From: an uncultured virus (IMG/VR IMGVR_UViG_3300000304_000038)
Taxonomy: Duplodnaviria > Heunggongvirae > Uroviricota > Caudoviricetes
Length of the DNA: 64,000 bases
IMG/VR virus record: IMGVR_UViG_3300000304_000038
Reading direction: 5' to 3' (one strand)
In this document: positions 3,001 to 63,424 of the stretch, piece by piece
Numbering within the stretch: position 1 is the first letter of the stretch
Layout of the letters: each line of letters starts with the position of its first letter
Made by a program: the position numbers and the translations under genes
Notes under the pieces: generated by a model
What the model was told of the DNA's origin: nothing
Seen by the model: only the letters and a program-made list of their open reading frames with translations
Database searches by the model: none

Positions 3001-4465
3001 TATAGCTAGTGCTCAGGGTGACTTGCTAGACGCTCAGAACAATGCCTATAACCTCTCCAAGGACCAAATCAAACAGACGCAAGATGATTCCCTGTCTGCG
3101 CTTCAAGATGCTAAGAATATGCTCAATGACATTTGGACTGATGCAAATCTGACTCTTGAGGAAAAGACTAAGAGAACTCAGACAATCATTGATTCTTTGA
3201 AGGAGTATCTTGCTGGCACAGGTGAGCAATTATCCACGGCGGAGACAAACATTATAAACGACTTCATTGGTATGTGCGAGCTTCTTACAGACGAGAATCG
3301 CACCAACCTCGAAGATGTCTATAATGAGATTCTACAAGGCAATAATGATGCCTTCGACCAGATTGATACTCGATGGTCTACATCTCTCACTCAATGGCTA
3401 CAGAATCTAACTGACTTCAATGACAAGACAGACGAGACTTTCGATAATCTCCTAAGCAACTATGAGTCTTATCAAGAGTCTCTAGACGAACTCTCTGAGG
3501 CTGCTGGTACCAATTTTGATGATTTGACTTCTCATATCAACAACGCCAATGATGCAACTGCGGCTTTGAATCAGACTTCTCAAGACTTTATGGCTACGAT
3601 TCGTGATGATGCGGGCGTAATCAAGAGCTATGAGAATCAGCTTGCGGAAATGACCGCTAAGATTCAAGATGCCGATAATGCCATGAAGGCATATCAAGAG
3701 CAAGTAAATGAATTGGCAGGAAAGCTTACGGCCAAAGAACAAGAGAATGCAAATCTTTCCAACAGAGTCCAAGAGCTAGAGCAGACAATCAAAAACTATG
3801 AGCAATACGGCAATCCTAATGGGGCCGGTGGTTCTGGTGGCGGCTCTGGTGGGGCCAAGGGTGATTCTGCAACGGCTTGGGGTATTGCTCAGGCGATTTG
3901 GACCTATGGTTCCCGCTCTGGCTGGGGTAATGACCCGATTCGTTCCAGCAAGCTTACCAATGCTTTTGGTAGCGCATTTGCAAGGCAAGTTCAGCAAATC
4001 ATCAACCAAAACACCCGCAACGGCAAGCTTGTGAACTATGACTCTATGAAGTATTCCTCTTATAATCTTATTGGTTATGACACCGGTGGTTATACTGGAA
4101 ACTTCAATGACCCGAGTGGCGCGGGTAGACTTGCAATTCTTCACTCCAAGGAACTTGTTCTCAATGAGAGTGATACGAAGAATATTCTTCAGGCTGTCGA
4201 AGCTGTTAGAAACCTAACCACTAGTTTCCGCAACGGAGCATTTGAGAATGCGGTTGAGGCTCTGTCCAATTACGGTGGTGAGATGCTAATGTCTAGCGTC
4301 GAACCGCAAGACCTTGAACAGAACGTACATATCGAAGCCAACTTTCCGAATGTCGTTGGTGCGGAGGAGATTGAGCGTGCTCTTCTCAATCTTAGTAACA
4401 CTGCTATGCAATACGCCAATCGAAACGGGCGTAATCCGGTAAATTCAAATGGTAGTTTTTCATAG
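2..4465 (+). CDS. Tail tape measure protein, C-terminal part (frame open to the window start)
   Basis: Over 1480 aa, acidic coiled-coil-like sequence with a Gly-rich linker. C-terminal 'GYDTGGYTG...LAILHSKELVLN' is typical of phage tape measures. First gene of the tail module. Confidence 0.85.
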   Translation, partial: EQINDLLIDSIIQQVNNSSLTEEQQAELLSNIDWTDPIENILGNVAKSIETGSVDYISASNVEDDSSERQATLTEFDISDETFDSYRELVETESALAETNQEVTDSIEKAKQEFGENSEEVKNLQKGYEDIDDISDDLATDLIRTQKGVDKLSESFEENYDILSRGDKTSLEYAEALAETKDALADVLNVSSEDISNDFIANHLEDIQSLVNGDVEALDRLRIAAGQEYVLELNQTGNLSDENLNYLQQKITEIGGMQIEVGASINDQAFVDSLNNMLLNGELTKDQVNTMLNMIGVEPNFTTVPHETTLFSTEGMSISGDIFGIPYDIDLPSFTITGMVDVPQITPAEGSGGTGLYKKATSYNGGRGFSAPKSSGGGGGGGGRKGGGGGGGGSGSGKSYEPKTKDPVEDELDRYERVDTELDALGNDFEKIADEQDRLLGDDLAKNMTKQIELLKEQIYWQQQKLEIQKDEAAEYRNQLSSQYGVTFNDEGFITNYADRYKAYLNNLNNLINQYNSTTTEAGQEALDKQIEDAQEAFDKFNELIDNYDDLISNQIKDSEAQIESFYDQIEDLQIEAFNRVVETVDNIKEIQETLVDFNAVFSGLDSDSPFREMATSLEKLKKYWDVGKESMEDYYDSLIAKNNEALKRTDLSEAQRNWLQYQNEVLQEGKAAYGQGTLEAGGTGYLDMELSNLNTIIGQIAQFEQQGFASIFGENESALFETAKEIFDSATSMIEDYEGEVDNLRDAILDAIDEIGERIDDRLEQYQNINDELEHYGSLIEMLHGENAYDELNQALSAQVNNNQSQILVIKESIEILKDMQSAMEEGSEEWKAVQEQINDKQSELLDKTEETMEQLVEIYQNGVNKALDAWTADSPLGSDLDWVSDEWELINRNADYYLDDVNAAYNIQKLQGKYLELLDGTDDLLIQQQITNQMNQQLQYLREKNNLSQYDVDYANAQLEILQRTIALQEAQRNKSQLQLRRDTQGNYNYVYTANEGDIASAQGDLLDAQNNAYNLSKDQIKQTQDDSLSALQDAKNMLNDIWTDANLTLEEKTKRTQTIIDSLKEYLAGTGEQLSTAETNIINDFIGMCELLTDENRTNLEDVYNEILQGNNDAFDQIDTRWSTSLTQWLQNLTDFNDKTDETFDNLLSNYESYQESLDELSEAAGTNFDDLTSHINNANDATAALNQTSQDFMATIRDDAGVIKSYENQLAEMTAKIQDADNAMKAYQEQVNELAGKLTAKEQENANLSNRVQELEQTIKNYEQYGNPNGAGGSGGGSGGAKGDSATAWGIAQAIWTYGSRSGWGNDPIRSSKLTNAFGSAFARQVQQIINQNTRNGKLVNYDSMKYSSYNLIGYDTGGYTGNFNDPSGAGRLAILHSKELVLNESDTKNILQAVEAVRNLTTSFRNGAFENAVEALSNYGGEMLMSSVEPQDLEQNVHIEANFPNVVGAEEIERALLNLSNTAMQYANRNGRNPVNSNGSFS

Positions 4466-4557: not shown

Positions 4558-7500
4558 ATGGCTAATCAGAGCGAACTAGAGAAGTCTCTTCTTGAGGCTA
4601 TTGGATATCTAGTGGACAATCGCGTGCAAAATGTAGATAGAGATAAGACCATTACTGCTACAATTGTATCTTGCGATAATGCTCTAGAGGGAAAATATAA
4701 GATACAATACAACGATGGAATTCTAACGGCTTATGCGCAAGACGGAGCAAGTTATAATACAAACCAAACCGTATATGTGCTCGTTCCGTTGGGGGATTTC
4801 AGCAAGACTAAGACAATTATAGGCAAGACGTCAAACGTAAGTGACGATAACAATCTTACTTTCGTAAGTTCTATGCTAAACAGCTACAATATGATAGGCC
4901 GCAATGTTATCATAGATGATGATAATAGTACGCCTATTGGTTTGAATACATATTATAAAGATGATTATGTTTTGCTTTATGACAGAGACTATCCAGAAGA
5001 GAGTCTGTTACAGGTAAACCAAGACGAATTTCTAAGCTATATAAAAAATGCCAATGCACTTCTCGTAGAGGGAACTTTTCAGACACGACTTCCGAGGGCA
5101 CATAGGCTTTCCAAGACTGGCATATATGGCATTCAGTTTGTTCTTGCGTTCAAAGACCAAGACAATCCAGAAGAGATAAAGCATCTGTCTTATGTTCTTG
5201 ATACGAACAATATGACAGGTAATCCACTTCTTTATACTCAATATACTAACCAATATGCTATCTATCCAATAGATACAGAGAATTTTCTCTACATAGAAAG
5301 TATCCTTGCCTACTCCAATGATTTCGTTACGGAAGACGATACATCCAACGCGACTCTTTGGGGCGACGATATATTCATAAAGGAATTCGAGATATATGGT
5401 CTGCAAGAGATATCCTCTACGAACGGAGACTATACTTTGCGGCTGTCCACGCCGCAAGGAGCTTTGTTTAGTAGTTTGCGGCCAGAGGAGACTTTGGACG
5501 TAGTTGCATCCACTCTATATCAAATCAATACCGATTTGTCTGATTCTTCTTCTTACTATTGGTTTGTGAAGGATGATAGAATCAATGCCACTTCCGAAGA
5601 GTATCAGATGTACGGTGGGGCCGGATGGCGCTTTATGAAGGATATGGGATACAACAAGTCCATAACTCTCAAAGCGTCAGATAACAGAGCGTATGAGAAC
5701 GTATACATGGTGGTGTCTGTTTATAAGGAAAGCGTAATCCTGAAGCAGACTTTTACCATCTATAACGAGGCCGCAAGAAGAGACATCGAGATAGAATCTG
5801 ACCTTGGACTGAAGTTTTCTTTTGACAGAGGCACTCCAACGTTGACTTGTTTGGTCAATGGCCGCAAAGAGAACTTTGATGACAACCATGACGATGCCCT
5901 ATTCTCCTTCTCTTGGAGTAAGATAGATGAAAGTGGCATCACCGTGTCTTTTTCCCAAACATATACGGAGCTAGAGGAACAATATAATCAGGCAATTAGT
6001 GATGGGCTTGGATATTCTCAGATTGTCGCAATCAAGAATCAAATGCTCGCTATGCAAGGGGTCGAGTTTGATAGAAATGTTTTGAAGTATCCAATCAAAC
6101 AGATTGATTCCAAGGCAACTTTCTCGTGTTCTGTCTATCTGCGAGAGACGCCAGATGCCGCAGAGTATTTTGTGGGTTCGGCTGAGATAACACTACAAAA
6201 CGAGAATGCGGCTGACCCTAATGACTATTACATTCTAATTGAAAACGGAGACCAAGTATTTCAGTATAGCGAGTCTGGTGTAAGTCCCGCGAGTGAGAGA
6301 TATACTGACCCATTAGAGATAAAGCCACTCGAATGTCACTTCTATGACCCAGCGGGACTAGAGGTAAATCCTGAGACATATTCAGTCAAATGGAAAGTCC
6401 CTACGACTAGCACTCTTATTGTGACTCCTGCGGAGGGGATGAACACAAATCCCGCAAATGACAAGCTAGAATGGTATACGCAAGCAACGTATCCAACGGC
6501 TATTGCGAACTCTTATGATTATCAGGCTTTGAACAATCAGGTTACTTGTATCGTGACCTATGATGGTCAAGACTATATGCAAGATACCAATTTCCTATTT
6601 GTGAAGGTAGGAGACAACGGTACCAACGGTACCGACATGGTAGGTAAGGTAAGTGCTATCACCGAGCCAAAAGAAGGCAGACTTGCTCTTGTAATCAGAG
6701 ACAATGATATTCCAAGGTGGAATACCGGAGAGTCTGCGGCGAATGCTGGGTTGAAGTTCGAACTATATCAAAGAAATGAACTAATCAATCTAGAGAATAC
6801 TTATTGGACTATCTCTGGCGGTAATTCCAAGTTCATAGATATTGACATGTCCACAGGAATCATTAGTTGGGAGCCGCAAACTAGTTCCAATCTTCTTACC
6901 AATTTGATTGTGCGGGCACAGACAACTTTTGAGAGTCAAGACTATTATGCCTTCTATCCTGTGCCAGTTATAAACTACAAGAATAGCGATAGCTATGAGA
7001 TTGTTCTAGACAAGACCAAGACTCTAAAAGATATTTTATATAATGCGGATGGCCGCAACCCCCTATACAACAAGAATCAAGGAATCTTCTTTACTCTAAA
7101 GAGCGATTCTGAGCTGACAAGATATATCACGATTTCTTGTGAGGGTGGAACGACCGATGGTGAACCAACCGCTGCATTCTTTGTATCTTCCGATAGAGAC
7201 GATGATACCAACGAAGATATCTCTACTTACTCTATTGGAGAAGAGGTCAGGACAAATGAGGAGATAGGGTTCTTTGTTCATCCTGACGATATCTATGATG
7301 GTTCTTTTACTAATAACAGAGTCCACGTAAAGATTTATATGTCTAGGTCGGCGGCTCAGAACAGTGGCAACACTGAGGCAGAATTTTACGTTCCTATTTA
7401 TATGTCTCTCAATACCTTTGGTCTTGCTTCCCTGAATGCTTGGGATGGCAACCATATTGAGATAAACGAAGATGGTAACTATATCGTAGCACCGCAGATA

Positions 7501-18978: not shown

Positions 18979-19278
18979 ATGCAACTTATTCAATATATAG
19001 GGCCGTTTGCGGCGGGAAAGACTTTCAGTCTTCCCGCCCAGATGGGCTATAGATATACTCACATAGGTCTACAGGTACCATATCGTCAACCAATATCTTT
19101 GATAAATTCTGCGGCTTTGCCGATTGATATCTCAATAAATGGGGTACAATATAGAGTGAATGACAAAGACATATTGGAGTTTGATAATATGCGAGAGACC
19201 TCTTTGGAGATAGAGATAGAGGACGATTTGCCTTGGGGGAGTATCATTGATATCGCCCGCGAGGAGCAACAGGACTAA
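18979..19278 (+). CDS. Small structural protein
   Basis: About 100 aa, AGGTGA RBS; resembles the C-terminal domain of 15794-16735. Confidence 0.6.
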   Translation: MQLIQYIGPFAAGKTFSLPAQMGYRYTHIGLQVPYRQPISLINSAALPIDISINGVQYRVNDKDILEFDNMRETSLEIEIEDDLPWGSIIDIAREEQQD

Positions 19279-19293
19279 AAAGGAGGTAATGTA

Positions 19294-20814
19294 ATGCCCA
19301 ACGGCGAAGATAAGAAGAATAACTTTGTCCTGAAAGTTTGGGACAATGTAAAGCAAGAATTCAGACCAAGCTACATTGCCCCCGACGCCACGGATACCGT
19401 TCAGGGAGACGTGAAGCTTTCTGACGCAACAGATAGCATTCTTGATGCGGCGAATGGCATGACCGCCGCGACCCCAAAGGCAGTAAAGACGGTACAGGAA
19501 AATGCCAACAACAAGCTTGACAAGGTAAGTGGTGCTGACCAGACGGTTGCTTCCAAAGTGACTTTCAATGAGTCTCTCACTCTTCAAAAGGGTGCCACCA
19601 TTCCAACTGGACAATTTCTTGCTGGAAACGTAAATGGCAACGCAACAACAGCTACCACTCTACAGACGGCTAGAACGATTGCCGTCAAGAATGGCAATGC
19701 GACTCAGGGAAGTGCTAGTTTCAATGGTGCGGCTAATATCACAATCAATGTGCCGCAAATCGATGCCACCACTTTGACTGGTCTTGTTCCTATGGCATCG
19801 ATTCCGCAGGGAGCTATGGAAAGGCTCGTCAAGGTACAGAACGAGGATGCTCGTTTCGCACTCACGGCAGAAGAGGTTCAGCTTGGTGACTCTGTTTTAC
19901 AGCTCGATACACAGGTCATGTATGTGGTTGTTGACACTAACGAGCTTGATAACGCGGCGGGATACCAAGAGTACAAGGCTGGTACCGCTGTTCTTGCCGA
20001 TACCGCCGAGAGAGTCGAGAACGCTCTGACGGTTCAGAAGAACGGTGTGACGCAGTTTACTTATGACGGTTCGGCCGCACAAACAATCAACATCGCTTCT
20101 AGCTTTGCGGACTTGTCTGGACAGATTGCCGCCGACCAGATTCCTGATGGTATTATAACAGATACAAAGTTGGGAGTCAATTACGCTGGTTCTGATACCA
20201 AAGGCGGAGCGGCTACGAGCGCGAACAGACTCTCTGCCGCAAGGACGATTTCTCTGACAGGAATCATCACAGGCAGCGTCGAGTTTGACGGTTCTCAAGA
20301 CGTATCTCTCACTTCCACTCTTGGAAACGGTGTGATTCAGACGAATCATCTTGCCGATGATGCCGTTACCACAGACAAGCTTGGCAACAGCTCGGTCACG
20401 AGTGCTAAGATTGTTGACGGTACCATTACCGGCACGGACATAGCGAATTCTACCATCACTGGTGGTAAGATTGCAACCGATACCATCACCGCAGGAAACA
20501 TCGCCGCAGGAGCCGTTGGAACGAGTGAGATTGCGGCCAACGCAGTGACTTCTGCGAAGATCGCGGCTGGCAATGTTGGCACAACTCAGCTTGCAGATGG
20601 GTCTGTTACTTCNNNNNNNNNNNNNNNNNNNNNNNNNNNNNNNNNNNNNNNNNNNNNNNNNNNNNNNNNNNNNNNNNNNNNNNNNNNNNNNNNNNNNNNN
20701 NNNNNNNNNNNNNGTACCATTGCTCTTGGAGATTTATCTAATACTATTGGTACGGTAGTTGTCTCTAGCTCAGAACCGAGTGACAGTCACGTGTTGCTTT
20801 GGGTGAAACCATAA
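19294..20814 (+). CDS. Tail fibre protein (contains an assembly gap)
   Basis: 'AT..VQGDVKLSDATD.....AATPKAVK' fibre repeat, 'AT.L.TARTI...G...GS..FDGS' repeats, 10-aa 'VT..KIA.G' repeats; ends LWVKP. Confidence 0.85.
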   Translation: MPNGEDKKNNFVLKVWDNVKQEFRPSYIAPDATDTVQGDVKLSDATDSILDAANGMTAATPKAVKTVQENANNKLDKVSGADQTVASKVTFNESLTLQKGATIPTGQFLAGNVNGNATTATTLQTARTIAVKNGNATQGSASFNGAANITINVPQIDATTLTGLVPMASIPQGAMERLVKVQNEDARFALTAEEVQLGDSVLQLDTQVMYVVVDTNELDNAAGYQEYKAGTAVLADTAERVENALTVQKNGVTQFTYDGSAAQTINIASSFADLSGQIAADQIPDGIITDTKLGVNYAGSDTKGGAATSANRLSAARTISLTGIITGSVEFDGSQDVSLTSTLGNGVIQTNHLADDAVTTDKLGNSSVTSAKIVDGTITGTDIANSTITGGKIATDTITAGNIAAGAVGTSEIAANAVTSAKIAAGNVGTTQLADGSVTXXXXXXXXXXXXXXXXXXXXXXXXXXXXXXXXXXXTIALGDLSNTIGTVVVSSSEPSDSHVLLWVKP

Positions 20815-20839
20815 AAGACGGAGATGAAAGGAGAAAGTA

Positions 20840-20942
20840 TTGAACAAATTTGTAATTAGTGACCTTCGTGGGGGGGCAATACCGTGTAGGTAGCCTCAAA
20901 GATAGATTCAATTCACCTTCTCTTGGAGGTGATAGATTATGA
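20840..20942 (+). promoter_or_regulatory. Leader ORF 1 with G7 tract (currently out of frame) and RBS-occluding hairpin
   Basis: AAAGGAG RBS, TTG at 20840. With G7 (20870-20876) it stops at TAG 20891-93; with G6 or G9 it reads to TGA 20940-42, overlapping the ATG of tip 1. TCACCTTC can pair with GGAGGTGA. Confidence 0.6.
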
Positions 20943-21377
20943 TAGACCAACAGAACATGCAGGTCAAGAATGGTTCTACTTGGCATACTATCTGTCCCTT
21001 CCCCGTGGGTTTCATATATCTTGCGGCCACATCGACCAGTCCGGGAATCACTTTTGGTGGAACTTGGGCGGCTCTTTCTAGCGGCTATTTTCTAAGACCT
21101 GCTGGAACTTTTAGTGGTACTGGCGGAGAAGCTACGCATACTTTGACAACTGACGAGATGCCTGCACACTCACATCATGGAGGTAGTTTTGGTAGAACGA
21201 TAAAGGAAGCCTCCTCTTTCGGCGTAGTAAAATCAGAAAGTTTCGCTAATAGGGTTCTAGTCTTTTTAGGTACTAGTTCCCCCGATACTGCTATAAGCAC
21301 CACTATCAACGGGGGGGGCATCTTACAACAATCTGCCGCCTTATCAAAATGTGTTTGGATGGAGAAGAACTGCCTGA
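20939..21377 (+). CDS. Tail-tip/receptor-binding cassette 1 (Gp10_C-like), frameshifted at a G8 tract
   Basis: 'CPFPVGFIY...P...FGGTW...GGEATHTLT.DEMP.HSH'. The conserved ending ASYNNLPPYQNVFGWRRTA* lies in the +1 frame after G8 at 21311-21318. Confidence 0.85.
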
Positions 21378-21396
21378 CAGGAAGTTGGTGGTCTAG

Positions 21397-21807
21397 GTGG
21401 CTACCATAAATTATTTTGATGGTGCGGTTTGGGATGATGCGATTCACCCTGTTGGTAGCTTTTATTTTAGCATAGAGTCCACTAGTCCATCTAGCTTATT
21501 TGGCGGTCAATGGACTCAGATAACTGGCGCGGCAATTCGTGGGGCAGAAGAGATGGGGTATGTTGGTAGCGATACTCATACGCTAACTTTGGCAGAGATT
21601 CCTTCACACCGTCACGTAAGTTCTAACTATTGGGGAGTTGTCTGTTCTCAAGGAATGAACACGGGAAACTTGAATGCCACTTATGTCAGTAACAGCAGTG
21701 GTAATCTTCTGTACGGAGGTTATGTGTTGAACTGGGAGGGGGGTGGGGCTGCTCACTCTATTCTTCAACGTTCCTTCAACTGTTACATCTGGTATCGTAC
21801 AGCCTAG
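21397..21807 (+). CDS. Tail-tip/receptor-binding cassette 2 (Gp10_C-like)
   Basis: 'HPVGSFYFS...PSSLFGGQW...THTLTLAEIPSHRH...GGGAAH...WYRTA'. Confidence 0.85.
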   Translation: MATINYFDGAVWDDAIHPVGSFYFSIESTSPSSLFGGQWTQITGAAIRGAEEMGYVGSDTHTLTLAEIPSHRHVSSNYWGVVCSQGMNTGNLNATYVSNSSGNLLYGGYVLNWEGGGAAHSILQRSFNCYIWYRTA

Positions 21808-21819
21808 ATAAAAGATTCG

Positions 21820-21873
21820 CATAATAATATGCCGCAATATCAATCTTGTTGCTGTTGGCGTATAATATCATAA
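21820..21873 (+). pseudogene. Orphan cassette C-terminal fragment
   Basis: Encodes HNNMPQYQSCCCWRIIS*, homologous to the cassette ending HNNMPPYRNCYCWYRTA*. Confidence 0.7.
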
Positions 21874-21930
21874 TCAAAAAATGAATCTATCTTATATTGC
21901 AAAAATTCTTTAGAAAAGGTGATATAAGAT

Positions 21931-22014
21931 ATGATATTAGATAAATTCACCTCTCTCTGGGGGAAGAGCATAGTCTATAGCTATGCGGCTTCCCAGATTG
22001 GGGGCTGCGCATGA
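21931..22014 (+). promoter_or_regulatory. Leader ORF 2 (27 aa), coupled to cassette 3
   Basis: AAAGGTGA RBS; MILDKFTSLWGKSIVYSYAASQIGGCA*; its TGA overlaps the cassette 3 ATG (ATGA). Confidence 0.6.
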
Positions 22015-22433
22015 TAGAACTTCAAAATATTCAAGTAAATAATGCGTCTGTTTGGAATACCATTTGTCCTTTCCCTATTGGATTCATTTATATGAGCGCC
22101 AATAGTGACAGTCCTAGCCTTCTTTTCGGAGGAACATGGAACCCAGTGACAGATGGTTATATGTGGAGACCAGCAGATAGTTGGAACGATACAGGCGGGG
22201 AATCAACTCATACTCTTACATATAACGAGCTGCCACGGCATAATCACCTTGCCAATTCTTGGTGGATGGGCAATGGTAGCATTCCTGTTCGCTCTACTGG
22301 TTGGGCTTATCGAGACAGTGGTACATCCACCGCAAATCCGCAAAATATAGGTACTTATAATTCCGGTGGGGGGGGGCCACACAACAACATGCCGCCCTAT
22401 CGCAACTGTTACTGTTGGTACAGAACAGCCTAA
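22011..22433 (+). CDS. Tail-tip/receptor-binding cassette 3 (Gp10_C-like), in-frame G9 tract
   Basis: Same conserved N- and C-terminal motifs as the other cassettes; G9 at 22368-22376. Confidence 0.85.
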   Translation: MIELQNIQVNNASVWNTICPFPIGFIYMSANSDSPSLLFGGTWNPVTDGYMWRPADSWNDTGGESTHTLTYNELPRHNHLANSWWMGNGSIPVRSTGWAYRDSGTSTANPQNIGTYNSGGGGPHNNMPPYRNCYCWYRTA

Positions 22434-22455
22434 ACCATGAAGTAGGTGCTGCCAC

Positions 22456-22875
22456 ATGATAAATCTTCAGAATGTGCAGGTAAAGAATGGCAGCACTTGG
22501 CAAAAAATATGTCCGTTCCCCATTGGCTTTGTATATAGCAGTTATACTGATGTCTCGCCGGGTTCTACATTTGGTGGAACGTGGACACCTATCACGGGAC
22601 GGTTCCCGTACTTCAACGCGGGAACCGATACGGGCGGCTCGAACTCCATCGTGCAGACCATCGAGCAGATGCCGAGGCACGACCACCCGACGGATTGGCA
22701 GAGTTTCAACGAGTACATGGTGCATTCAACAGGGACGGAGCCGCAAGCGACGAGTTATAACGCTGTGTATTGGTACGTCAAAGAGAGCACAACTGTTGCC
22801 CCGCAGGGCGGCGGTCAGCCGATGAACAATATGCCCGCATATCAGACTCTATACGCATGGAGACGAACAGCCTAG
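22456..22875 (+). CDS. Tail-tip/receptor-binding cassette 4 (Gp10_C-like), GC-rich core
   Basis: Same motifs; ends MNNMPAYQTLYAWRRTA*. Confidence 0.85.
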   Translation: MINLQNVQVKNGSTWQKICPFPIGFVYSSYTDVSPGSTFGGTWTPITGRFPYFNAGTDTGGSNSIVQTIEQMPRHDHPTDWQSFNEYMVHSTGTEPQATSYNAVYWYVKESTTVAPQGGGQPMNNMPAYQTLYAWRRTA

Positions 22876-22914
22876 ACTATATTTATCTAATATCCTTTAT
22901 CGAAAGGATATTGT

Positions 22915-23007
22915 TTGATTATGATTCAAATAGCAATTAGTGAGCTGCTTAGGGAGGAGCATAAAGTAAGTCTTTCCCCAAGCAGTTCTATTGGTGGTGA
23001 TATATAA
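22915..23007 (+). promoter_or_regulatory. Leader-like ORF 3 with no downstream cassette
   Basis: AAAGGA RBS inside the hairpin 22889-22912; TTG 22915 / ATG 22921 MIQIAISELLREEHKVSLSPSSSIGGDI*, resembling leader 1 (..ISDL..SPSLGGD). Confidence 0.45.
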
Positions 23008-23040
23008 GCCCTAGTCTTTATGGCTAGGGCTTTTTCTTTT
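23006..23040 (+). terminator. Rho-independent terminator closing the cassette array
   Basis: AAGCCCTAGTC / GGCTAGGGCTT followed by a T-run. Confidence 0.8.
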
Positions 23041-23126
23041 TATACCAAGGGCATATTCTAGCAAAATAATCAGGGCGGTTTTCAGATGTATTAGGTATGT
23101 TTCTAGATAACAGGAGGGAGAAAATA

Positions 23127-23663
23127 GTGGAACCACTTACTGCTCTTTTCTCTCAAATGTCCATTGAATCAATAATCTTGTTTATTGGTGCAATTCTTCT
23201 TGCGGCGAAGGCTATGAGTGAGGTTATGGACTGGGCATATTTCAAACTAAAAAAATACTTCAATGTCAAGTCTCAGAAGGAAGAGAAACTTGACGATATC
23301 ATTGAGAGACTAGACCGTTCGGAAAAGCGCTCTATCAAAAGAGACGAGAGAGTGGCTAACATAGAGAATCAGATAAACCTCATTCAGAACCGACTACAAG
23401 ACAGCACCCGCAGTTATATAATCGACAAGTACCATTATTATGTCCAAGAGCTGGGGGTGATAGACGAAGCCGCCTTACAAGACATTGAGAGACGATACTT
23501 ATATTACAAGGAGGCGGGCGGCGATACGTTCATAGAATTGCAGATGGAGAAATTGAGGAACTTACCTCTGGTTACTCCTGAGCAGATAGCCGCAGACCGC
23601 AAGGAACACATATCCAAATTACATACTCTCTTGGGCGAGAAAACAAGTGACGATGGGAGGTAG
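23127..23663 (+). CDS. Membrane protein, possibly holin-like
   Basis: AGGAGG RBS with GTG start; one N-terminal TM helix, coiled coil, 'Y..YK.AGGD' tail. Confidence 0.55.
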   Translation: MEPLTALFSQMSIESIILFIGAILLAAKAMSEVMDWAYFKLKKYFNVKSQKEEKLDDIIERLDRSEKRSIKRDERVANIENQINLIQNRLQDSTRSYIIDKYHYYVQELGVIDEAALQDIERRYLYYKEAGGDTFIELQMEKLRNLPLVTPEQIAADRKEHISKLHTLLGEKTSDDGR

Positions 23664-28511: not shown

Positions 28512-28940
28512 ATGGCACTTTTACAACCTTGTAGAGTTCAATCTACCCAACTGTCTTCTCTGCCAGTCAAGGAAGGACAGTTGATTTTTTCCATTGATGA
28601 TAAGAAAATCTATATAGATACTGACAGCCGCATAGATATGACACCCGAATTTTCTGGCTCACTTTCCTCTCTTGGAATCACTGCAACAGTAGAAGAGCTA
28701 AACTATATGGATGGTGTTACCTCTAACGTCCAAGAGCAGTTGAATGGTAAGGCTGCTTCCTCGCACACTCATAGCGCCGCCGACATTACGTCTGGTGCCC
28801 TTGATGTTGTGTATGGTGGTACCGGAGCCACTACTGCCGCAAGTGCTCGAAGCAATCTAGGAGCCGCTGCAAGTGATATTATCCTTGTGCAAGCAAGTCA
28901 ACCAAGCTCTAGCACTTGTAAGCTTTGGATAAAACCATAA
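28512..28940 (+). CDS. Short fibre protein
   Basis: 'ELNYMDGVTSNVQEQLNGKA..SHTHSAADITSG...GGTGATTAASARSNLG'; ends LWIKP like the main fibre. Confidence 0.75.
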   Translation: MALLQPCRVQSTQLSSLPVKEGQLIFSIDDKKIYIDTDSRIDMTPEFSGSLSSLGITATVEELNYMDGVTSNVQEQLNGKAASSHTHSAADITSGALDVVYGGTGATTAASARSNLGAAASDIILVQASQPSSSTCKLWIKP

Positions 28941-42557: not shown

Positions 42558-45500
42558 TCAGTCCTCCCCGTAGCGTTTATCCGTCCCTCTGAGAATATAT
42601 CCCTTGTAAAGCTCTGTTATCTTGTATATCTGCGGATAGACGGACTTCTTTCTTGAGCGGCATCTGAACATGTCACCGTTTCGCCATCCAGTGAGCATGA
42701 GAAGCGTGCCGCGATTGAACCAACTATTTTCGACAACCTTGTTCTCGCCGTCTACGATATCACTTATGCGGCGATTGTACTTTGCAAAATATTCAAGATT
42801 GAACTTTACTGTGACCACGCCAGACTCCGGTGTTAGCAAGTCAACCGTAGCCTTGGTATTATTCTTCCCAATAACTGTTCCGGCTATACGGCTCAGCTCA
42901 TAAATAGGAATTTCCCTTCCGTTCTTACTAAAAGTATACTCCACCTTGGGTTCACTTGTCAACGAGGAATATGGAACGACACCATAGGCCGCAAAGTCAA
43001 CATTAGCAAGTTCGTGGTCGTGGTAGTAGTAACCAAGGCTGTCCATCTCCCAAGTCGAATAGGTTCCTTGTGCGTACTTTTTCCATTGCTCTTGGAAGAG
43101 AACGTCATTGAAGGCGTTGAGAAGTTCCTCTTGATGCTCTTGGATATATTTCTTTGCTGGTTCCATAGCCTTCGTATAGAGCTTCTGCCATGTCTTCTGC
43201 GGAATGACGGTTGTTCCCTCGTATGGCTCCAAGAGGTCTAAGTCAAAGAACTGCTCGTAGAAGTCATAATAGCTATAGTTTATCACGTAGTAGTCTTTTA
43301 GTTTCTTCTTTGCGCGCAGAGCTTTGTTGAATACGAATACTCTCCTTTGAAATTCTAGCTCTTGCGGCAAAAGTCCGAGGTCAACAAGTCCCTTGAAATT
43401 CTGTAGAGTAAGACGCTTCTTTGGTTCGCTCGCTCGCCGCAAATATTGTTCCATCAAATCCTTGCGCTCACCGAATTTGTCGAATGCGCCAGATTTGATT
43501 AGAGCAATAATCATGGTCTTGTTAGAAGAAGTCACTTTGGATTCAAAATCCTCGATGGAAGTGTATGGACGATTCTCGATTATCTCTTGGATAGCCTCAC
43601 CACCAACACCTGTCAGTGACTTCATACCATAATAGATTGAGTTGGTAGCTTCGTCTGGCTCGAACATATAACCTGAGCGGTTGATATCCACTGGAAGGAC
43701 TTTGATATTATGGTGTTGGATATCTCCCACAGCTTTGGAAACCTTAGTATAGACCGTTGAAGAGTCTTCATCAAGTCCGCTGGTGACTCGAAGATACGCT
43801 GTGTTCCAATAGACGGAAGGAAAATAGGTTGCTAAATATGCGGCCTGAACTGCGATGTAAGAATAGCTGGTTCCATGAATCGAGGAAAAAGAATAACCCA
43901 TACTCGGTTGTAGTAAGAACCAAACATACTTTCCCATCGCAGGGCTGGTAGCACGGTCAAAAATCTTTTGCCGTTGTAGGGGGATTTCGTCCATATGCTT
44001 CTTGGCGACAGTTTTTCTCAAAGCGTTGCTTTCTTTTAGACTAAAGCCGCAAATCCTATCATCCATAACGATACGCATTAGCATTATATACTTCAACTTT
44101 CATTGAAGAGTAGACTATACCATCTTTACATCATAGCAAAGTCCCCATTATAGTCGTTGAACGTCCCTCTGAGCTAGAGGTTTCGATGCGTCTGGTTGCC
44201 CAATCCTTAGCGATGTTACCTTACCTTGGTCGCTAACCTCGCCGCTAATATATCCCTATATTAGTTTGGTTGCTAAGGCTCTAAGGGTATTCCCGCAGTT
44301 TAGGGGATTTATAGAGTGCCTAATACTTGTTCAAAAACTAACTTTTTTCTCGTAAGATATCGGTATTCGGTCTGATTGTAAAAAGCATTATATAAGAATC
44401 TCATATTTTCTCTATGATTATATCCAGTTCCTATTTTGAGCTGATACAAAGGCCGATTGACATTTATATTGTGTTGCGTTGTATATGGTCTTTTATATTC
44501 GCCTTGCATATTTATAAAAATCGAACTGGGATATGGGAGTATTGAAGAGAATTTTTGTTTGATTTGTTCTTCAAACTTTATATCTCCAACTATAGATATT
44601 CCCGGAGAGTGCTTGTATGGATGTACCGTTCCATCCCCATCAAAATACCCGTGGAAGAAAGAAAGAAAAAGATTGTCATTTTGTATAATACGAGAGTCAA
44701 TATAATTTTCTATAGAACTCTTATTTTGAACAATCCCATATTCAGTAACAAAAGTATGAAAGTTTTGTTGTTGAATAGTTATCGCAGCGCTTCTGCCGTG
44801 ATGCCCAAGATAGATTCTTTCTTTTCTTAGTCCTAATGTGTTACAAAAGTTATATAAAATCTCTATATCATCTATTTTTACTTCAAGAATAAGACGTTTA
44901 GGGCCATCTATCTTCTTATAGTCTTGAGGGGCAACACATCCATCTGCCATAATATATCCGAGCCAATATGCTCCCAATGTGGATAGCGGTTCATCAAATA
45001 GATTGAACGTTCTTATAATCTTTTCTGTAACATCAGGAAAAACATAATAGTCTTCTATTTTTCTATTTCTTTTTTGAAACCATTTTTCTGCGACACCCAG
45101 CTTTTTAGAGATACTATAAATACTAATAGGAGTATTATGATTCTCTATAAATAGTTCTAATGCTAAATCAGCGATTTCTTTATTATCTATCTCACGTTTG
45201 CCAATAAACATAATAATCATCTCCTTCACTTGTAAGATGATTATTATATACCCACTAGAAATATATTTTATACACAGGTTGACACTCTTGGTCAATTAGA
45301 ACTCCGTTACGAACGTATTTCTTGATTACGTTTTGCTCTTCTTTTGTCAAACCATAAGCATCCATCTCTTTATCCCATTGTTCAGGATGATTCATTATTC
45401 TAACATATCTATCAGTAGGAGTTTCGCCGCTATCATCTGCCATAAGCCGCATAATACCATTGCAGTCGTTCAAAGTTTCTATGTCTCTTGGAAGAAGCTT

Positions 45501-47797
45501 CTTGACTGTTTGTGAGCCTACGTCTGACACAAGTTGGAATAGGGCAAGAATATCTGTACTGTCAACAGCATCCCAGAGTTTATCATCGTTCATTGGCAAA
45601 ACATCTGGTGATACATACTTGTCATATGCTTGCCGCAAAGTTAGTTCTGGCTCAATCTTACCGTGCTCTTGGAGAAGTTTGATACACTGAGCCATAATAT
45701 CCATTTGCTGAGTTACAAGAATATCTACTTTGGTAGTTCCAGCATACTCTTGGTCGTGGAGTGACCATTGGGTAATAATCGAACCGTCTTTTGCTTTCAT
45801 AAAACAAGCTTCAGAATAAGGGTCATCATTATCGTAGAACCCCACTCCAGATGCGTGGATAGAACGATTTTGGATAAGTCCTTCTATTCCAAGCAAAATC
45901 TCTTTCAATCCCGGATACAGATTCACAACTTTGATAAACTCCTGAGACGGCTTTCTTCCTTTTTCTTGATTGCCATAGAAGCAATCTGACAAGCTATATA
46001 AGAAACCTCTCTCTTGGGGGACAAGACTTGAAAGATATTCTGCTTCATCTAACTCAATTCCATCTGGACAATCATTACTTCTATATCCTCGTGCGGCTAT
46101 TTTGATAGCTGCCTTGGTGGAGATAGTTCCATAAGTACAAATCTGTACGCATCCTAACTGACCTCGCTCTTCTCTAATCTTCTCAAAAACCTTTGGCCGC
46201 AAAGTGGGAGAGATATCAATATCAATCCTAGTTACCCTCGGTTTCCCGATATTTATTAGGGGAGTGGACTATACCATCATCCGTTCTGGATGGGCGTTGG
46301 TAGTCTCTACGGGCTTCTCTTGCGAGCTGTCCCACGGGATTGTCTTGCTCTTATGAGTTTAGATTTTCCCCGTTATTCCGCCTTTGCTTAGACTATTCCT
46401 AGTCTAAGGGACAAGTATGTTTATCCGGTAACTCGATACGCTCCTTATTGAGAAAACGCCAATAGGCAAAATGATGTTTGATTGGGTCAAGGCCAGTTAC
46501 ACCTAATAGCCAATGATTGAGACCAGCAGCCGCAGAGCCTCGTGCTACTCCAATAGGTGAACCAACGTCCCATATCATATCAATATAGTGTTGAAGAAAA
46601 TTAGGATAAGCAAAAATACAAGTATCAAGATGCTGACCAACATAATCCATAATATCAGCTTCGTATTCAAGCCGTTCGAGATAAGTATCACAGCCTAGAT
46701 GCTGAGGACTCAGATGCCGCAAATTTAGTTCGTTCTGACATTCGTTTATCCAATAGCGTTCTTGGGGGTTCTGTGAATGCATTAGTTTGTCAAGAGTAGG
46801 ATATTTTTCTTTATCATAGAAGTGATGATTTTCTGGCTCTATTGGATAGTTTGGGACTGGAGCTTCAACAATATGTTGATTTTTATGAAGAGTATAATAT
46901 TCACATCTATCATATATCTTCATAGAGTTAGCGCAAAGCTCTTCGTAATCAAGCCCAATACCTTCTAGGTTCTCTCTGATTTCTTCTTCGGATTGAAGAT
47001 ATGCATAAGCATAGAAAGAATCTACTTCTCTATCTCCTTCTTTGGAGTTTAGAAGAGCTTTGTGAACATATCTATCTTCTTTGCGGAGATAGTGACTGTC
47101 GCAAGTAACGCAGATAGGGAGGTCGAAAGCCTTAGCGATTGCCCCCATTCTTTTGTTTACAATCAACTGCTCTTCTGACCTCGCAGGTTGGACCTCAAGA
47201 GAGAAGTTATTATCTCCATAGGTATTCTTGCACCAAAGGAGAAAATCAACAATGTCCCTGTGAGCTTGGTTCATTTCTGCGGCGTTTCCGATAATCTCTG
47301 CCTCATGCAAATCAAGAATACGTTTGTCCAAGAATGATCCCAGGCAGGCACTTGATCCGTATATGTGTCCCTGTCCATATTTTTTGATAACAGCTTCTAT
47401 TTCAGAATAAAGAGTAGGGACTCTTTCTCCTCTGTCAAAATAGCTTTGTATCCAAGATTGAGAGGAAAGCTCTCTTAGCATCTTATGTCCCGTGGCATCC
47501 AGAGCCAAGAGTATGTGATGGTAGTATTGCTGTCCAGAGCTTCTATCTTTTGTGAGATATATCTCGTTTCCGCGAACAATCTTGAAGTCAGGATATTTTT
47601 CTTTATATTCTTCCTGAAGGCGGTCTAGCTCTACATGAGCACCAAGACTTTCGTGATCGGTAAGTCCTACGCCCGCAAGTCCTAATTCAATTGCTCTATC
47701 TATAAGTTGTCTTGGTCTGTTAGTTGCATCGAGAAGTCTGATGTTAGACCTAAGAATAGTGCGAGTGATTGTGAAAATCAAGCCTCGGCACTATCAT
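42558..47797 (-). CDS. dnaE: DNA polymerase III alpha: exons 47797-46423 (with 7 extra nt at 47749-47755), 46226-45282, 44081-42558
   Basis: PHP 'HNHSHYS', 'TDH', 'RGSAA', spliced 'ELPD|IDID', 'SIHASG', 'DQEC|LM', 'YSFS..H..SY', HhH and OB regions. Confidence 0.92.
44082..45281 (-). mobile_element. Group I intron dnaE-I2
   Basis: UGU| ... AUAAUG| boundaries (inferred); TTCAACGACTA...GTATAGTCTA core. Confidence 0.82.
44309..45213 (-). CDS. Intron-encoded LAGLIDADG homing endonuclease
   Basis: 'AYWLGYIMADG' and 'FFHGYFDGDG' motifs; start uncertain. Confidence 0.88.
46227..46422 (-). ncRNA. ORF-less 196-nt group I intron dnaE-I1
   Basis: GAU| ... CUAGG|; AATCCCGTG, GTAGAGACTA, GTATAGTCC; removal restores PDIDID. 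Confidence 0.88.
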
Positions 47798-58296: not shown

Positions 58297-61200
58297 TCAA
58301 GCTATATTTTTTCCTACACTCCCAAGCTTGCCACAGACCTTGTTTCCTTTATTAGTCAAAACGGCTTGCTCGATTCTGTCATTCGCCGCAAGCTTCATCG
58401 CCTTGCGACCGGGACTTGCCTTGGCAAGAAGGGAAACATCATCAACGTTCAACAGCAGTTGCTTCTTTGTGGTTGTCAATGCAAGGCACTCGTAGTCCTC
58501 GCAACATTGGATACCGACAACCTCAGCCGCATCGTGAAGTTTGACAATCGGCATACCCTTTAGATTCTGGGTGGCGCCATTCAGATCACTTGACTTCACT
58601 CTCTTGGAATAGCCATCACTTGTCGTAATTATGATGCTATCTTCGCATCGAGGGGTGGTGAACGTCACGATTCTTTCTTGCGGCTGGAAGTCTAGAATGG
58701 TACCAAGAGCTGTTCCCTTGTCAGAGTTCAAGCATTCCTTGAACGTAGATGTCTTTACCCTGAATGCCCGTCCAAGAGACGAATAGAATACGACAAGTTC
58801 GTTGTTCTCTACCTTCTCCTCGCGGACGTTATTAGGACTCGTGCGGAACTTGGCAACCGGGACGGACTTTACGTAGCCGTTCTTGTCGAGACATATGATT
58901 ACGCTGTGCGGCAGTTCCTTCTGCTTTTCTTTTGGAGACTTCTTCTGAATCTCCTTGTTGATTACTTGCGTGCGGCGCGGAGTTCCAAATTCCTCTGCGA
59001 GATTGACAAGCCTCTCAATGAGAATGTCTTTTTGTGCCTCTTTAGACTCAACAATAGTCTGTAGTTTCTTTGCAAGCTCTCTTTTGGCCGCAAGTTCATC
59101 TAGAATCTCTTGTTTTTCTAGATGGGCAAGTCTACTTAGTTTCAAGGCAAGGATAGCATCCGCTTGTCTTTCTGTCAAACCTAGTTTGTTAGTCATATAT
59201 GCTTTTGCGTCAGCCGCGCTCTTGGAGCTTCTGATTAGCTTGATAACGTTATCAATCCCATTATAGGCACGCTCTAATCCTTCAAGAATCTCTATCCTAT
59301 CGAGAGTCTTATCTAGGTCAAATTGATATTCTCTCTTGATACAGGATAGATTATGATCTTTGTATATGCGGCATACGTCCTCTAGGTTCAGAAGTGTTGG
59401 TGTCTTAGAGACAACAGCCATCTGATTTACATTTATCTGTGTTCTGAGCGAGGTATATTGAAATAGCTCTTCTAGTAGAGTTTGCACTTTGGCCGCAGAC
59501 GTAGCTTCCACCACAAGAAGGGTTCTCTTCTTGTCTGTTCTATTGGAACAGTCAGCGAAACCATCAAGCTTTCCCTCTTCATAGGCTTTTTTGATTTCTT
59601 CTACAACAGGTTCAATATAGACTTGGTGTGGAAACTCTGTGAAGTATATCTCCTTACCGACAAGCTCATATCTAGCTTCTAGAATGATGCGGCCTTTGCC
59701 GGTTTGGTTTATCTTCCCAAGCTCGTCTTTGTTGATGATAGTACATCCTGTTGGGAAATCTGGGTAGTAACTATCATTTTCTACTTCTGATGTTTTCAGA
59801 TAATTGACCAGAAGATTTGCGGTTTCTTGAAAATTATGGAGCGTCCATACATTTGCGACAGATACTCCGATGCCCTGCGAACCATTTACCAATAGACGTG
59901 GGAAGATAGCAGGGAGAACCGTTGGCATTTCTTCGTCTTCTGAGAAGTTGAGCATCATGTCAACCGCATTCTTATTGATACCATCCAAGAGACCTTGCTC
60001 TGTTATCTTAGAAAGCCGCACCTCCGTATATCTATCTGCGGCGAAAGCATCAGAGCCGAGAACAACGTTTCCGTTTGCACCGTGGAAATCAATCTCAGGA
60101 TTGTTATTGGTAAATGGCTGAGACATATGGACAAAAGTCTCGTAGATTGCCTGTGTCAATTTTTGTTATCCTAAAGGCTTTTTATCCTTTAGTTCTTATA
60201 GTTTCCTATAAGGTCGGCATATCTTTTCTATTATATATAAATAGTTGCTGTCTCTTGGAAGGATTATATTCTCTTGCGAGTTTCACCTTCTATGCTCTGC
60301 CCCTGACTAAAATGTTACCTTTAGCCTTCGGTTCGGGTTAGCATAGCTTTTATAAGCTTTAGCCTTCCCGCTTAGTACAGCAATTTTAGCACGGCACACA
60401 GTTTTTTCTTTTTAGATATAGTTGGTACTTTCTGTCTAAATAGATATCTGCGTGTTGATACAAGATATCTAGTGCTCTATTAGCTAGTTTTTTTGAAGTA
60501 ATATTGAAGCGATATATGGTTCCGTGTTTGAGGATATTATTTGGAATTTTTTCTATCAAAGTTTTTTCAAAAAAATTTTTGACATAGAGACAGGTTTCAA
60601 AAGAACCTACTATACCAATTCTATCGTCATAAGTGCTAATATATCCATCTCCGTCAAAAATTCCTCTAACATAGGCAGCAGCAAGATTGTTATCGCCTAA
60701 AATAGTAGGTATTTCTTTACCACTTTTTGCACCAGATAAGCCATATTGCGATAGATTTTGAACAATATTTTTATTGCTTATTTTGATTACGTGGCACAGA
60801 TTATCTTGAGTATACGCCCCACCGCTACAATCTTTGATAATATGATTAGAGTTATACCCTAAATATTTAGCAAATTTTTCTAAATGTCTTTTATCTTTAT
60901 GAGCCAGTTTGATTTGTAATAAAGGTTTTTTGTCACTATCGGATACATATCCATCTGCTAAAATAAAACCCAGCCAATAAGCATCTTGTTCATTTTGGAT
61001 TCTATCAAACGCATTTGTATTATAACTATATCTCATTTTTCATACCCATCTCTAATCTTTTTGGGTATAAGAACAAACTGTTTTTATTCTACCGTGCGGC
61101 CACCAGTTAGCTGCAACTCCGCCGTCTACCTTTGCAGACTTTACGTGCGGCTTCTTTGAGGAGTATCCTTTGGTATACATCTCCCAAAGAATGCACCTTT

Positions 61201-61318
61201 GCCCAGCTTTCAATCCATCGCGTGCGTCTGGGAAGGCACGATTGGTGTTTGTGTCGTAAGAGAAGTCAATAAAGTTTTGACTTACCTCTTGGACAACATC
61301 TATTGATTCGTTAGTCAA
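58297..61318 (-). CDS. gyrA: Type IIA topoisomerase subunit A, two exons (61318-61091, 60156-58297)
   Basis: 'RAFPD.RDGLK..QR', 'KSA', spliced 'PHG|TQAIY', catalytic 'AADRYTE', 'PDFPTG'. Confidence 0.92.
60157..61090 (-). mobile_element. Group I intron in gyrA
   Basis: GGU| ... AUUG|; GCAGAGCATA / AGATATGCC P7 pair. Confidence 0.85.
60386..61036 (-). CDS. Intron-encoded LAGLIDADG homing endonuclease
   Basis: 'AYWLGFILADG', 'YVRGIFDGDG', 'YLDRK'. Confidence 0.9.
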   Translation of the reverse strand: MRYSYNTNAFDRIQNEQDAYWLGFILADGYVSDSDKKPLLQIKLAHKDKRHLEKFAKYLGYNSNHIIKDCSGGAYTQDNLCHVIKISNKNIVQNLSQYGLSGAKSGKEIPTILGDNNLAAAYVRGIFDGDGYISTYDDRIGIVGSFETCLYVKNFFEKTLIEKIPNNILKHGTIYRFNITSKKLANRALDILYQHADIYLDRKYQLYLKRKNCVPC

Positions 61319-63424
61319 TTCGTGCCTCCTCTGAATGTTCTAGAATGAACTTTACTCTTGGTTCAACCGCCTTACCATAAAGGTCTTGGAATAGTTGATT
61401 AGTTGTAGGAACGTCATCGACAGTAAGCTGGACAATATGTCTTGTATTGGAATCCAATAGACATTCTGAGAGTTCGCTGCTGTCCATCTCTCCCAAGCCT
61501 TTCAGGCGATTTATTGATTGAATATTTTTATATTTTGCTTTATACGATTGCAAAGCATTATCATCTTTCAAATAGACATATTTATTCTTTGTGGTTGTGA
61601 CTTTATACAGAGGGGGTACGGCGGAATAGACATGACCATTGATAATTAGCTCAGGACAAAGATTCCAAAGAACATTGAATAGCAAATTCTCTATCGCAAA
61701 GCCGTCAAAATCCAGTAATGCTTATATTGCTATAAGACTTAGACTATATCTTTCCTACTAGAATAGTAAGGGTATTGTTTCGGATTACGTATCAATAGCA
61801 ATCCTACTCCCCCGTTTCGGGGATAGTCGTTACAGGTTTTTATTTCCCACGGGATTGCCTTATAAAAGGTTCCCCCGTTAGCAATAAATATTACCTCAGC
61901 GATAACTGAAAAAATACAACACAGCCAATTTTATTTAGCATCACAGCAAGCGATAATTTTTCCATATCTTAGTTTATCTTTGTCGTATACCATCTTACCC
62001 GTTTGCGGATTATAATCAAGACCAAGAGCCACAACTAAATTGTTGATTTCTTGATTCTTCATAATTGCATTTGCGGCTGCTTTGAGTACGTTTAGAATTT
62101 TTCCTCGTACACCATATACTGCTTGAAACTCGGAAGAACGACCAGCTACAAGCCCTGATTTTGCTGAGTCTCCTTCGCAGACGAGCAGCTCACATTTGTC
62201 TCTATTCTTTGACCAACAATCAGTAAGCTTTGTCGGCATCTTGAATACTTTGTCTTTTTTCTCTGCCTTTTGCCGCACAGCTTCTCTTGCCTTCTTTGCG
62301 GCCTCAGCAGCTCGTCTAGCAAGAAGAGCCTTCTCAATGATAACCTTACCATCTTGCGGGTTATTGTCTAACCAAATCTCTAACGCATTGCTAAATACCT
62401 CGTTTATAAACGGATTATCTGCGGTACTAGTTACTCTTACCTTTGTTTGAGAGTCATATCTGATATCTTTAGATACTAAATTGAATACAATTATCATACC
62501 CTCTTGAAGAACAGAACCAGACAGAGTTTCTTTAGGCTTTAGTAAACCTTGTTCTTGCCCCCATTTATTGAGTGTTTTGGTAATAGTTCCTTTGACGCTT
62601 GTAATCGGAGTACCAGCTTCAATCGGAGCATAATTGCAAAAAGCAATAATGTTTCCACCATTATCAGAAACAGTCAATCCTAAGTTCAATCTACGATAAT
62701 CTTTAGTTTCATCTAAAATAAAACGGCTTGTGAGGATTTCTACTTTACTCTTCGTTTCATATTCAAGATAATCATTTAGCCCTTCTGGGTGGGCAATTTC
62801 TTTTCCGTTGAAAATATAAGTAAGATTAGGGCAAACACAAGTAATCTTATGTGCATTTTCCAAAAGAAGAGATTCATTTGGAATTGCGCTATCAAAAAAT
62901 TCCTCGCTTGGTTGGAATTCTACAATAACGCCATGTTCGTTCTTATCACACCTACCGGTTTCTCTGCGTGCGAATTTTCCTTCATCGAAAAAGACCTTCT
63001 CAAAGATTCCATCTCGTTTTGTGGTAGCAATAAGATAGTGCGAAAGATAACAAGTTAGAGCGGCACCAATACCAAAAGCTCCAGTAGAAACTTTATATAC
63101 AGCATCTTCATCTTTATTGAATTTCCCAGAAGAATTTACCTCTCCATAGACTAACTCTAGAGTAGTTTTATCTCCTTGTTTATTGTTTGGAAGAATACCC
63201 TGTCCCCAGTCTTGTACTGTAACAATATTTTTTTCGCTGTCTATAGTAACGGATATTTTATCGCAATTGCCAGCAAGATGTTCATCTACTGCATTAGAAA
63301 CGATTTCTGTTACTAGTTGGGTTGAATCTACGGTAGAGCCACAGTATACATCTGGCCTATGGCGACAAAACGTTAAAGGGTCCATTCTTTGAATAGAATC
63401 TTTATGATAAGTATTATGATTCAT
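61311..63424 (-). CDS. gyrB: Type IIA topoisomerase subunit B, two exons (63424-61937, 61712-61311)
   Basis: GHKL 'EIVSNAVDE', 'D.G.GI', 'EGDSA', 'RGKILN', spliced 'DA|DFDG', 'KGLGEM'. Confidence 0.93.
61713..61936 (-). ncRNA. ORF-less 224-nt group I intron in gyrB
   Basis: GCU| ... ACUG|; AATCCCGTG, GTAACGACTA, ATATAGTCT. Confidence 0.88.

Follow-up and report, generated by a model that had tools for sequence, protein, structure and literature searches.

The locus examined here raises the question of why a short open reading frame (ORF) carrying a run of seven guanines should stand between a phage tail fibre gene and a row of small related genes, and what a change in the length of that run would mean for the genes behind it. 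A sequence-only reading had proposed a contingency locus in a regulatory leader ORF, currently OFF, that gates translation of the first of these genes. Taking our findings together, we propose that the locus is quite probably a heritable tail-tip selector, operated by poly-G slippage together with translational coupling.

The fibre locus, its cassettes and leader 1

The window (the whole stretch of 64,000 nucleotides that was analysed) represents the tail region of a large gut phage whose gene content is of the lytic type. Pfam and PHROG scans place the tape measure, tail fibre, holin and endolysin on its plus strand, and the DNA polymerase, primase, helicase, topoisomerase and ribonucleotide reductase on its minus strand; relatives are found on contigs of up to 145 kb. 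The endolysin has matches of 35-62% in Collinsella, Eubacterium, Blautia and Ruminococcus, and the nearest named phages stand at about 32% to the window phage, with no G run of seven or more (G7+) in the stretches of them that were examined. No tRNA genes were found within the window, and a sigma-70 scan was uninformative (8 sites versus 6.1 expected). The DNA polymerase and topoisomerase genes are interrupted by endonuclease ORFs (42558-47781 and 58297-63983), which suggests several group I introns or free homing endonucleases.

The tail fibre gene just 5' of the array (19294..20814, plus strand, like all array features below; Pfam Phage_fiber_2, PHROG tail fibre) contains 101 N at 20613-20713 and ends in a C-terminal motif common to the fibres of relatives. 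This Pro...Trp motif, conserved at the fibre gene ends of the clade (20716-20811 in the window), is a candidate docking strand for the products of the genes that follow; a motif of the same type also ends the ORF 28512-28940 (at 28842-28937). The four cassette ORFs 3' of the fibre gene encode 136-156 aa, and all four exceed the 27-bit cut-off of the Gp10_C family (PF21939), with 35.4-55.5 bits. A profile comparison with the C-terminal domain of T4 gp10 (PDB 2fkk) gave an E value of 1e-6, and the predicted structure of cassette 3 (mean pLDDT 74.7, below 50 in the middle) matched the same domain with a Foldseek E value of 2.6e-4 and a VIA Z of 5.2 (rmsd 6.9, 112 residues), the next matches being other fibre collars or tips with weak scores. 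Like the T4 domain, the cassettes have collar-like ends and a variable middle; in T4, however, the domain terminates a 602-aa baseplate protein, whereas the cassettes are free-standing proteins of 120-170 aa in arrays of 2-11. From the fold, the gene position and the variable middle, we infer that they are interchangeable receptor-binding tips on the fibre. Across 20988-22646, three related sequencing runs (X1-X3) keep the cassette ends and the leaders, and have the middles replaced or the order changed, a pattern that shows fast modular turnover.

Leader 1 (20840..20942) starts with TTG behind an open ribosome-binding site, AAAGGAG (20827..20833; opening energy 1.7 kcal/mol), and contains the G7 switch tract at 20870..20876. 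When the tract length was varied in silico, the frame at G7 or G10 ended at TAG 20891-93, 48 nt short of cassette 1, and at G8 it ended at TAG 20887-89 (both OFF); at G6 or G9, it ran for 33 or 34 codons to TGA 20940-42, forming an ATGA overlap with the cassette 1 ATG at 20939 (ON). The strong ribosome-binding site, the TTG start at 20840, the tract and the stop at 20893 were thus all where the sequence-only reading had put them, and the variation in silico bore out both the overlap that it had claimed for G6 or G9 and its parallel, the same ATGA overlap of leader 2 (21931-22014) with cassette 3. The reading of TAG needs attention here, since leader 1 uses it for both OFF stops and phAss-1, a distant relative and code-15 gut phage (TAG=Gln), is described as recoding it. 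Such recoding was considered and rejected for the present phage: TAG is the commonest stop, ending 13 of the 19 listed plus-strand genes (17-31803) and 26 of 69 cassettes, so that the OFF frames of leader 1 do stop.

A further claim had been that the ribosome-binding site of cassette 1 can be sequestered. The 8-bp hairpin concerned (20913..20932, arms 20913-20 and 20925-32), which would hide the cassette 1 Shine-Dalgarno (SD) sequence, is indeed the centroid structure, at -11.7 kcal/mol, but by itself it is unexceptional against shuffled sequences (z -0.56 to -1.85). Opening the cassette 1 start is predicted to cost 12.7 kcal/mol versus 1.7 for that of leader 1. Just three G7+ runs (G7, G8 and G9) occur in the 64 kb, all inside the array and within 1.5 kb, against a compositional expectation of about one across the window, in which no C run of seven or more was found. 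As an exact pattern, the flanks of leader 1 had 0 matches in viral contigs.

Cassette 1 (20939..21409) is itself out of frame at present at a second tract, the G8 at 21311..21318: its current ORF extends 10 nt beyond the start of cassette 2, whereas the intact frame would end at 21377. Hence, the gate that had been claimed for leader 1 is supported, but its object has to be widened from cassette 1 to a two-cassette unit, and since cassette 1 is broken, turning leader 1 ON now would send ribosomes through to cassette 2, yielding cassette 2 and not cassette 1. Cassette 2 (21397..21807), the last of this unit, has a GTG start that is ATG in a relative, and its sole G-rich run is an interrupted G6-T-G4. 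In the second unit, leader 2 (21931..22014), with a short G5 tract at 21959-63 and a long hairpin over its ribosome-binding site and start (21885..21934, z -3.79), is ON; cassette 3 (22011..22433) is intact and carries a G9 tract (22368..22376), which at G7 or G10 would create in silico an ATGA overlap with cassette 4; and cassette 4 (22456..22875), the last of the unit, has no tract. An orphan third leader (22921..23007), whose tract is degenerate and which no cassette follows, ends in an SD-like motif directly 5' of the terminator-like hairpin that closes the array (23006..23032). Extra letters are present at this point (23005/23006) in related contigs, and in one of them they end like a cassette; probably, then, a cassette has been lost behind this leader. 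With leader 1 OFF, cassette 1 shifted, leader 2 ON and cassette 3 intact, cassette 3 is predicted to be the one cassette made now.

The ribosome-binding sites or starts of internal leaders lie inside strong hairpins in the window (21885-21934 and 22890-22911) and in most relatives. These regions fold with z scores of -3.8 and -4.0, and a TCTAAT motif is frequent in the 5' arm. One speculative possibility is that a promoter could start inside the hairpin, so that only the leader's own transcript has a free start.

Leader frames and tract-length alleles across the family

Scans with the gene behind the array retrieved 75 loci, of which 22 have the array; these reduce to 12 non-redundant loci, which together with the window make 13, with 80 cassettes in all. 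Scans with two other proteins added no further array-bearing genome. A single G7+ run was found in total among 28 related loci of at least 10 kb that have no array, none in ten other Gp10_C loci, and one in the Gp10_C locus L008, where it lies away from the cassette; the poly-G design thus appears to be specific to this clade. In L008, an unrelated phage, a short ORF with a G9 and a strong SD overlaps the start of the next gene (3840-3900) and is possibly the same kind of switch.

Across the 13 loci, 36 leader tracts lie in short ORFs, nearly all of them 3' of a clear AAAGG-type site. We tested 35, omitting the one at L040 8680, whose cassette is deleted and which fits the design through a remnant mini-ORF. 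Exactly one frame reaches the next start in 34 of the 35, versus 13.1 expected from dinucleotide shuffles of the spacer. The ON frames end between -6 and +17 nt relative to that start, many in ATGA or TAATG overlaps, and the other two frames stop 12-82 nt earlier. The leaders belong to 19 sequence families, for which the product of the null probabilities is about 9e-11, a value to be read with the facts that the test window (-9..+20) was set after the data had been seen and that the loci are related. The exception, L018 6091, is closed in all three frames by a single base that makes a stop lacking in its L040 homologue. Leader peptides are unrelated from family to family, which suggests that what counts is the frame rather than the peptide. 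Among the leaders before Gp10_C cassettes, 10 of 31 are ON.

Five of the 35 tested leaders precede accessory fibre genes rather than Gp10_C cassettes; such poly-G leaders are seen in L020 (5044-5990), L021 (4454-5030) and L022 (6392-6450), and one of them begins in the stop codon of the main fibre. There are also tract-less leaders or mini-ORFs that end at the next start (L018 8739-8818, L016 7924-7990 and L040 8733-8817), which resemble what is left of deleted cassettes after fusion and would serve as fixed-ON entries or as relays. Tracts at L018 4246, L040 6248 and L018 10625 comprise G8/G10 within the opening codons of an accessory fibre gene, which is an ordinary in-gene switch, and a G8-9 run between genes outside the array, situated between a stop codon and the following start.

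The lengths of these tracts differ among close relatives. Four of nine listed related sequencing runs (X1-X4) were compared as contigs. At 20870-76, run X1 has a G8 contig (depth 184.8) and a G9 contig (depth 6.0), which differ in other letters too and so represent two strains and not one varying clone; X3 has a +2 allele; in X4, two contigs end or begin inside the tract; and X2 has a loose contig end at 20868. The leader 1 tract is therefore not of uniform length among relatives. In X3, moreover, leader 2 has a -1 allele as well as a longer G run, and the cassette 3 tract has a -1 allele. Five near-identical pairs of loci (L017/L037, L018/L019, L023/L024, L023/L043 and L034/L035), two further pairs having been set aside as identical contigs, differ at 11 places in 70,290 columns, 5 of which are tract indels, one per pair and each in a G8-10 tract; a near-identical pair without the array has 5 substitutions and no indel. 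Within the five pairs, 5 of 22 G runs vary versus 0 of 11 A/T runs of seven or more, a comparison of small numbers with unmatched run lengths, and a homopolymer or assembly error could account for any single pair. Repeat length sets the reading frame, and length alleles occur among near-identical genomes above the level of other homopolymers, in the manner of a contingency locus.

The starts that follow the tracts are predicted to be occluded. The median opening energy is 13.6 kcal/mol after leaders (n=35) and 14.3 kcal/mol after cassette tracts (n=33), versus 6.4 kcal/mol at ordinary starts (n=126; p of about 1e-12 for coupled against ordinary); the somewhat stronger SD pairing of the coupled starts (-12 versus -10) adds to the opening cost. 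A stop at, or a few nucleotides from, a poorly accessible downstream start is the arrangement of translational coupling. The length alleles at the leader 1 tract, the one-open, two-closed frames of the leaders and these occluded starts together uphold the earlier proposal of a contingency locus in a regulatory leader that is OFF at present.

Relay tracts, bypass frames and the proposed routing of ribosomes

The sequence-only reading lacked a second layer, namely, the relay G tracts near the cassette ends (in the window, the G8 at 21311 and the G9 at 22368). In all, 35 cassette tracts lie in a Gly-rich stretch 5' of the conserved C-terminal motif; 33 were tested, and two in last-of-unit cassettes were omitted. 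At 31 of the 33 junctions, the intact cassette frame terminates 15-33 nt short of the start that follows; at the two others, which are homologous, the distance is 84 nt, and both shifted frames cross the gap. Overall, the start of the next cassette is reached in both shifted frames at 32 of the 33 junctions, versus 12.2 expected under synonymous recoding, the exception being cassette 3 of the window, where one shifted frame forms the ATGA overlap and the other stops at -18. A G7+ tract is present in 33 of 39 cassettes directly preceding another versus 1 of 37 last-of-unit cassettes (76 of the 80 cassettes, those with a recognisable end; Fisher p 3e-14, uncorrected for kinship). The six direct junctions without such a tract consist of three bypassed cassettes and three with G5 or interrupted runs. 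In the last 51 nt, a shifted-frame stop occurs in 0/62 for tract-bearing and 43/82 for last cassettes, as counted under the first cassette classification, in which three ends were miscalled.

In three loci (L016, with the junction at 5117-6033, L047 and L038), one shifted frame crosses a whole middle cassette, over 153-178 codons, and stops 2, 2 and 4 nt, respectively, before the third start. These three are the only ones, of 156 shifted frames, that stay open through an entire cassette; all lie at the middle cassettes of three-cassette units, and the null probability under synonymous recoding is 0.001-0.003 per case. The bypasses form two families, the DNA of L038 being unrelated to that of L016 and L047. 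As a bypass would otherwise be useless, these frames are the most forceful argument that ribosomes are not handed on efficiently by an intact cassette.

We accordingly envisage a unit made of a leader ORF and one to three Gp10_C cassettes whose starts would be folded shut and would depend on a ribosome terminating at or across them. The leader tract would act as an ON/OFF gate, one of its three length classes bringing ribosomes to the first cassette. With a relay tract in frame, the protein would be complete and the stop about 20 nt short, leaving the next cassette largely off; with the tract out of frame, the conserved C-terminal strand would be lost, and the ribosome would reach the next start and turn that cassette on. 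In some units, the third frame would skip a whole cassette and start a third, giving a one-of-three selector. Slippage during replication would alter the tract lengths, so that progeny would differ in the tip made. A descriptive walk through this model from hand-picked entry points, in the 13 loci of 2-11 cassettes each, gave a single product for 8 loci, two products for 3 loci, three for 1 locus and no product for L040, which has one product if its remnant is counted. The array may thus be a ribosome-routing decoder that works without a recombinase, in which chained three-state tracts direct ribosomes by way of leaders, disrupted cassettes and stop-free bypass frames, allowing at most one of up to three tips per unit. 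We favour this reading, though with less assurance than the selector as such; that the chained relay with its three-way bypass is exclusive as modelled we hold on balance, a little more guardedly still.

At relay junctions, the anti-SD arm overlaps the intact stop or lies within 10 nt of it in 14 of 15 cases with an upstream arm; a terminating ribosome might therefore open it in the intact state too, which tells against a simple model of hairpin melting, and the exclusion at these junctions must rest on distance. A gap of about 20 nt is reported nearly to abolish termination-reinitiation in native gene pairs, with gene-specific leak at gaps of 14-15 nt (Huber et al. 2023, PMC10666635); the studies cited there and in a review (PMC12548453) disagree on the effects of distance. 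Some leak at relay junctions is likely.

It is conceivable, if unlikely, that a genuine leader gate is followed by cassette tracts that represent ordinary phase variation within a gene, with a non-polar bypass: each cassette would be made whether or not the one before it is intact, and the shifted frames would stay open only to keep the loss of one cassette from silencing its successor. The 15-33-nt spacing of intact stops, seen at 31 of the 33 junctions and frequently next to the anti-SD arm, would suit this, as would an Escherichia coli pair reported to reinitiate over a 15-nt gap (PMC10666635); but a stop-free bypass of 150-180 codons would be needless were the middle cassette already coupled to the third, the two 84-nt gaps are crossed by both shifted frames, and some leader OFF stops (-12 to -31) are as near to the next start as intact cassette stops. 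Long homopolymers can slip during transcription, an established phenomenon, and the tracts might act mainly through RNA-polymerase slippage or ribosomal frameshifting, which would yield a graded mixture of cassettes from every genome and no heritable state. We regard this as very improbable, given the DNA-level length differences between near-identical genomes and among relatives, and the share of leaders that are ON, about one-third, as drifting DNA states would predict.

Control could alternatively be transcriptional, with leader translation blocking a terminator, or with polarity cutting untranslated RNA. The pil1 operon of Streptococcus gallolyticus offers a precedent (PMC3894217), and the hairpin at 21386-406 over the cassette 2 start passes the terminator-like scan. 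Against this stand the leader 1 hairpin (20913-32), which contains the SD and was not called by the scan that gave 4 terminator-like sites in 19200-23200, and the ON frames, whose ends at the start codon itself (-6 to +17) are a mark of translational coupling; we give this explanation scant probability. It is scarcely credible that the G7 arose by misassembly or is a fixed allele of no effect, its overlap being due to chance: the assembly is metagenomic and homopolymers are error-prone, but the design recurs in 13 loci and 19 leader families, and the 28 array-less related loci of at least 10 kb have one G7+ run among them. This explanation is already largely refuted, and a wrong G count would alter the present state only.

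Relation to known switches and significance

The nearest parallel to the leader gate is the leader-peptide phase variation of pil1/pil3 in S. gallolyticus (Danne et al. 2014, PMC3894217). As described for pil1, slippage of a repeat in a short upstream ORF shifts its stop, and a ribosome running further opens a downstream hairpin, the output being a surface adhesin; in leader 1, likewise, the repeat moves the stop of an upstream ORF with an open SD and start, across all three frames, and the leader is presumably translated. However, pil1 is described with GCAGA repeats, a transcription terminator, two of three frames ON and one switch per operon, whereas the phage arrays have poly-G, a hidden SD with a start/stop overlap, one of three frames ON and switches chained through coding genes. 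Among phages, Fletchervirus (Sorensen et al. 2021, as cited) similarly has G7-11 tracts and phase-variable host-recognition genes, but the tracts sit inside the receptor-binding genes that they switch, and the citing passages mention no leader gate or relay. The contingency loci of T2/T4 (Gomez et al., bioRxiv 10.1101/2025.10.21.683753) likewise use reversible homopolymer slippage as bet-hedging, though there A tracts inactivate their own gene; the same work reports repeats to be under-represented in coliphage tail genes, and the available part of its text has no instance of "translational coupling." Termination-reinitiation coupling (PMC10666635 and PMC12548453) shares with the arrays its overlapping or near stop-start pairs and a steep loss with distance, but as published it concerns the fixed geometry of a gene pair, whereas the geometry of the array shifts with tract length; neither "phase variation" nor "frameshift" appears in the consulted part of the review (PMC12548453).

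Systems that use one alternative fibre tip at a time are otherwise exemplified by the Gin invertase of Mu, Cin of P1, shufflons and diversity-generating retroelements. Invertases, shufflons and retroelements of these kinds rearrange or rewrite DNA with an enzyme, whereas the array consists of separate co-directional genes that would be chosen at translation. No recombinase or reverse transcriptase was found with PHROGs among 49 scanned proteins of the 64-kb window, and no long DNA repeats between its cassettes. A search of titles and abstract openings, mostly of freely accessible papers, found no published description of a repeat-switched coupling relay. The leader gate is, then, a variation on repeat-driven phase variation, and the chained relay with its three-way bypass is the surprising part.

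Phase variation by repeats usually toggles the gene that bears the repeat, and an exclusive choice usually needs a recombinase; here, slippage together with translational coupling appears to give an exclusive choice, even one of three, and overlapping frames of 150-180 codons appear to be kept only for the transport of ribosomes. The arrays provide compact natural parts for testing how distance governs termination-reinitiation, which is disputed, and for building random switches synthetically, and annotation would render them as pseudogenes and junk ORFs. Should the decoder operate as we are inclined to believe, host recognition in this clade of large gut phages would take heritable states that exclude one another, and a phage could carry as many as 11 tip variants while producing only some of them.
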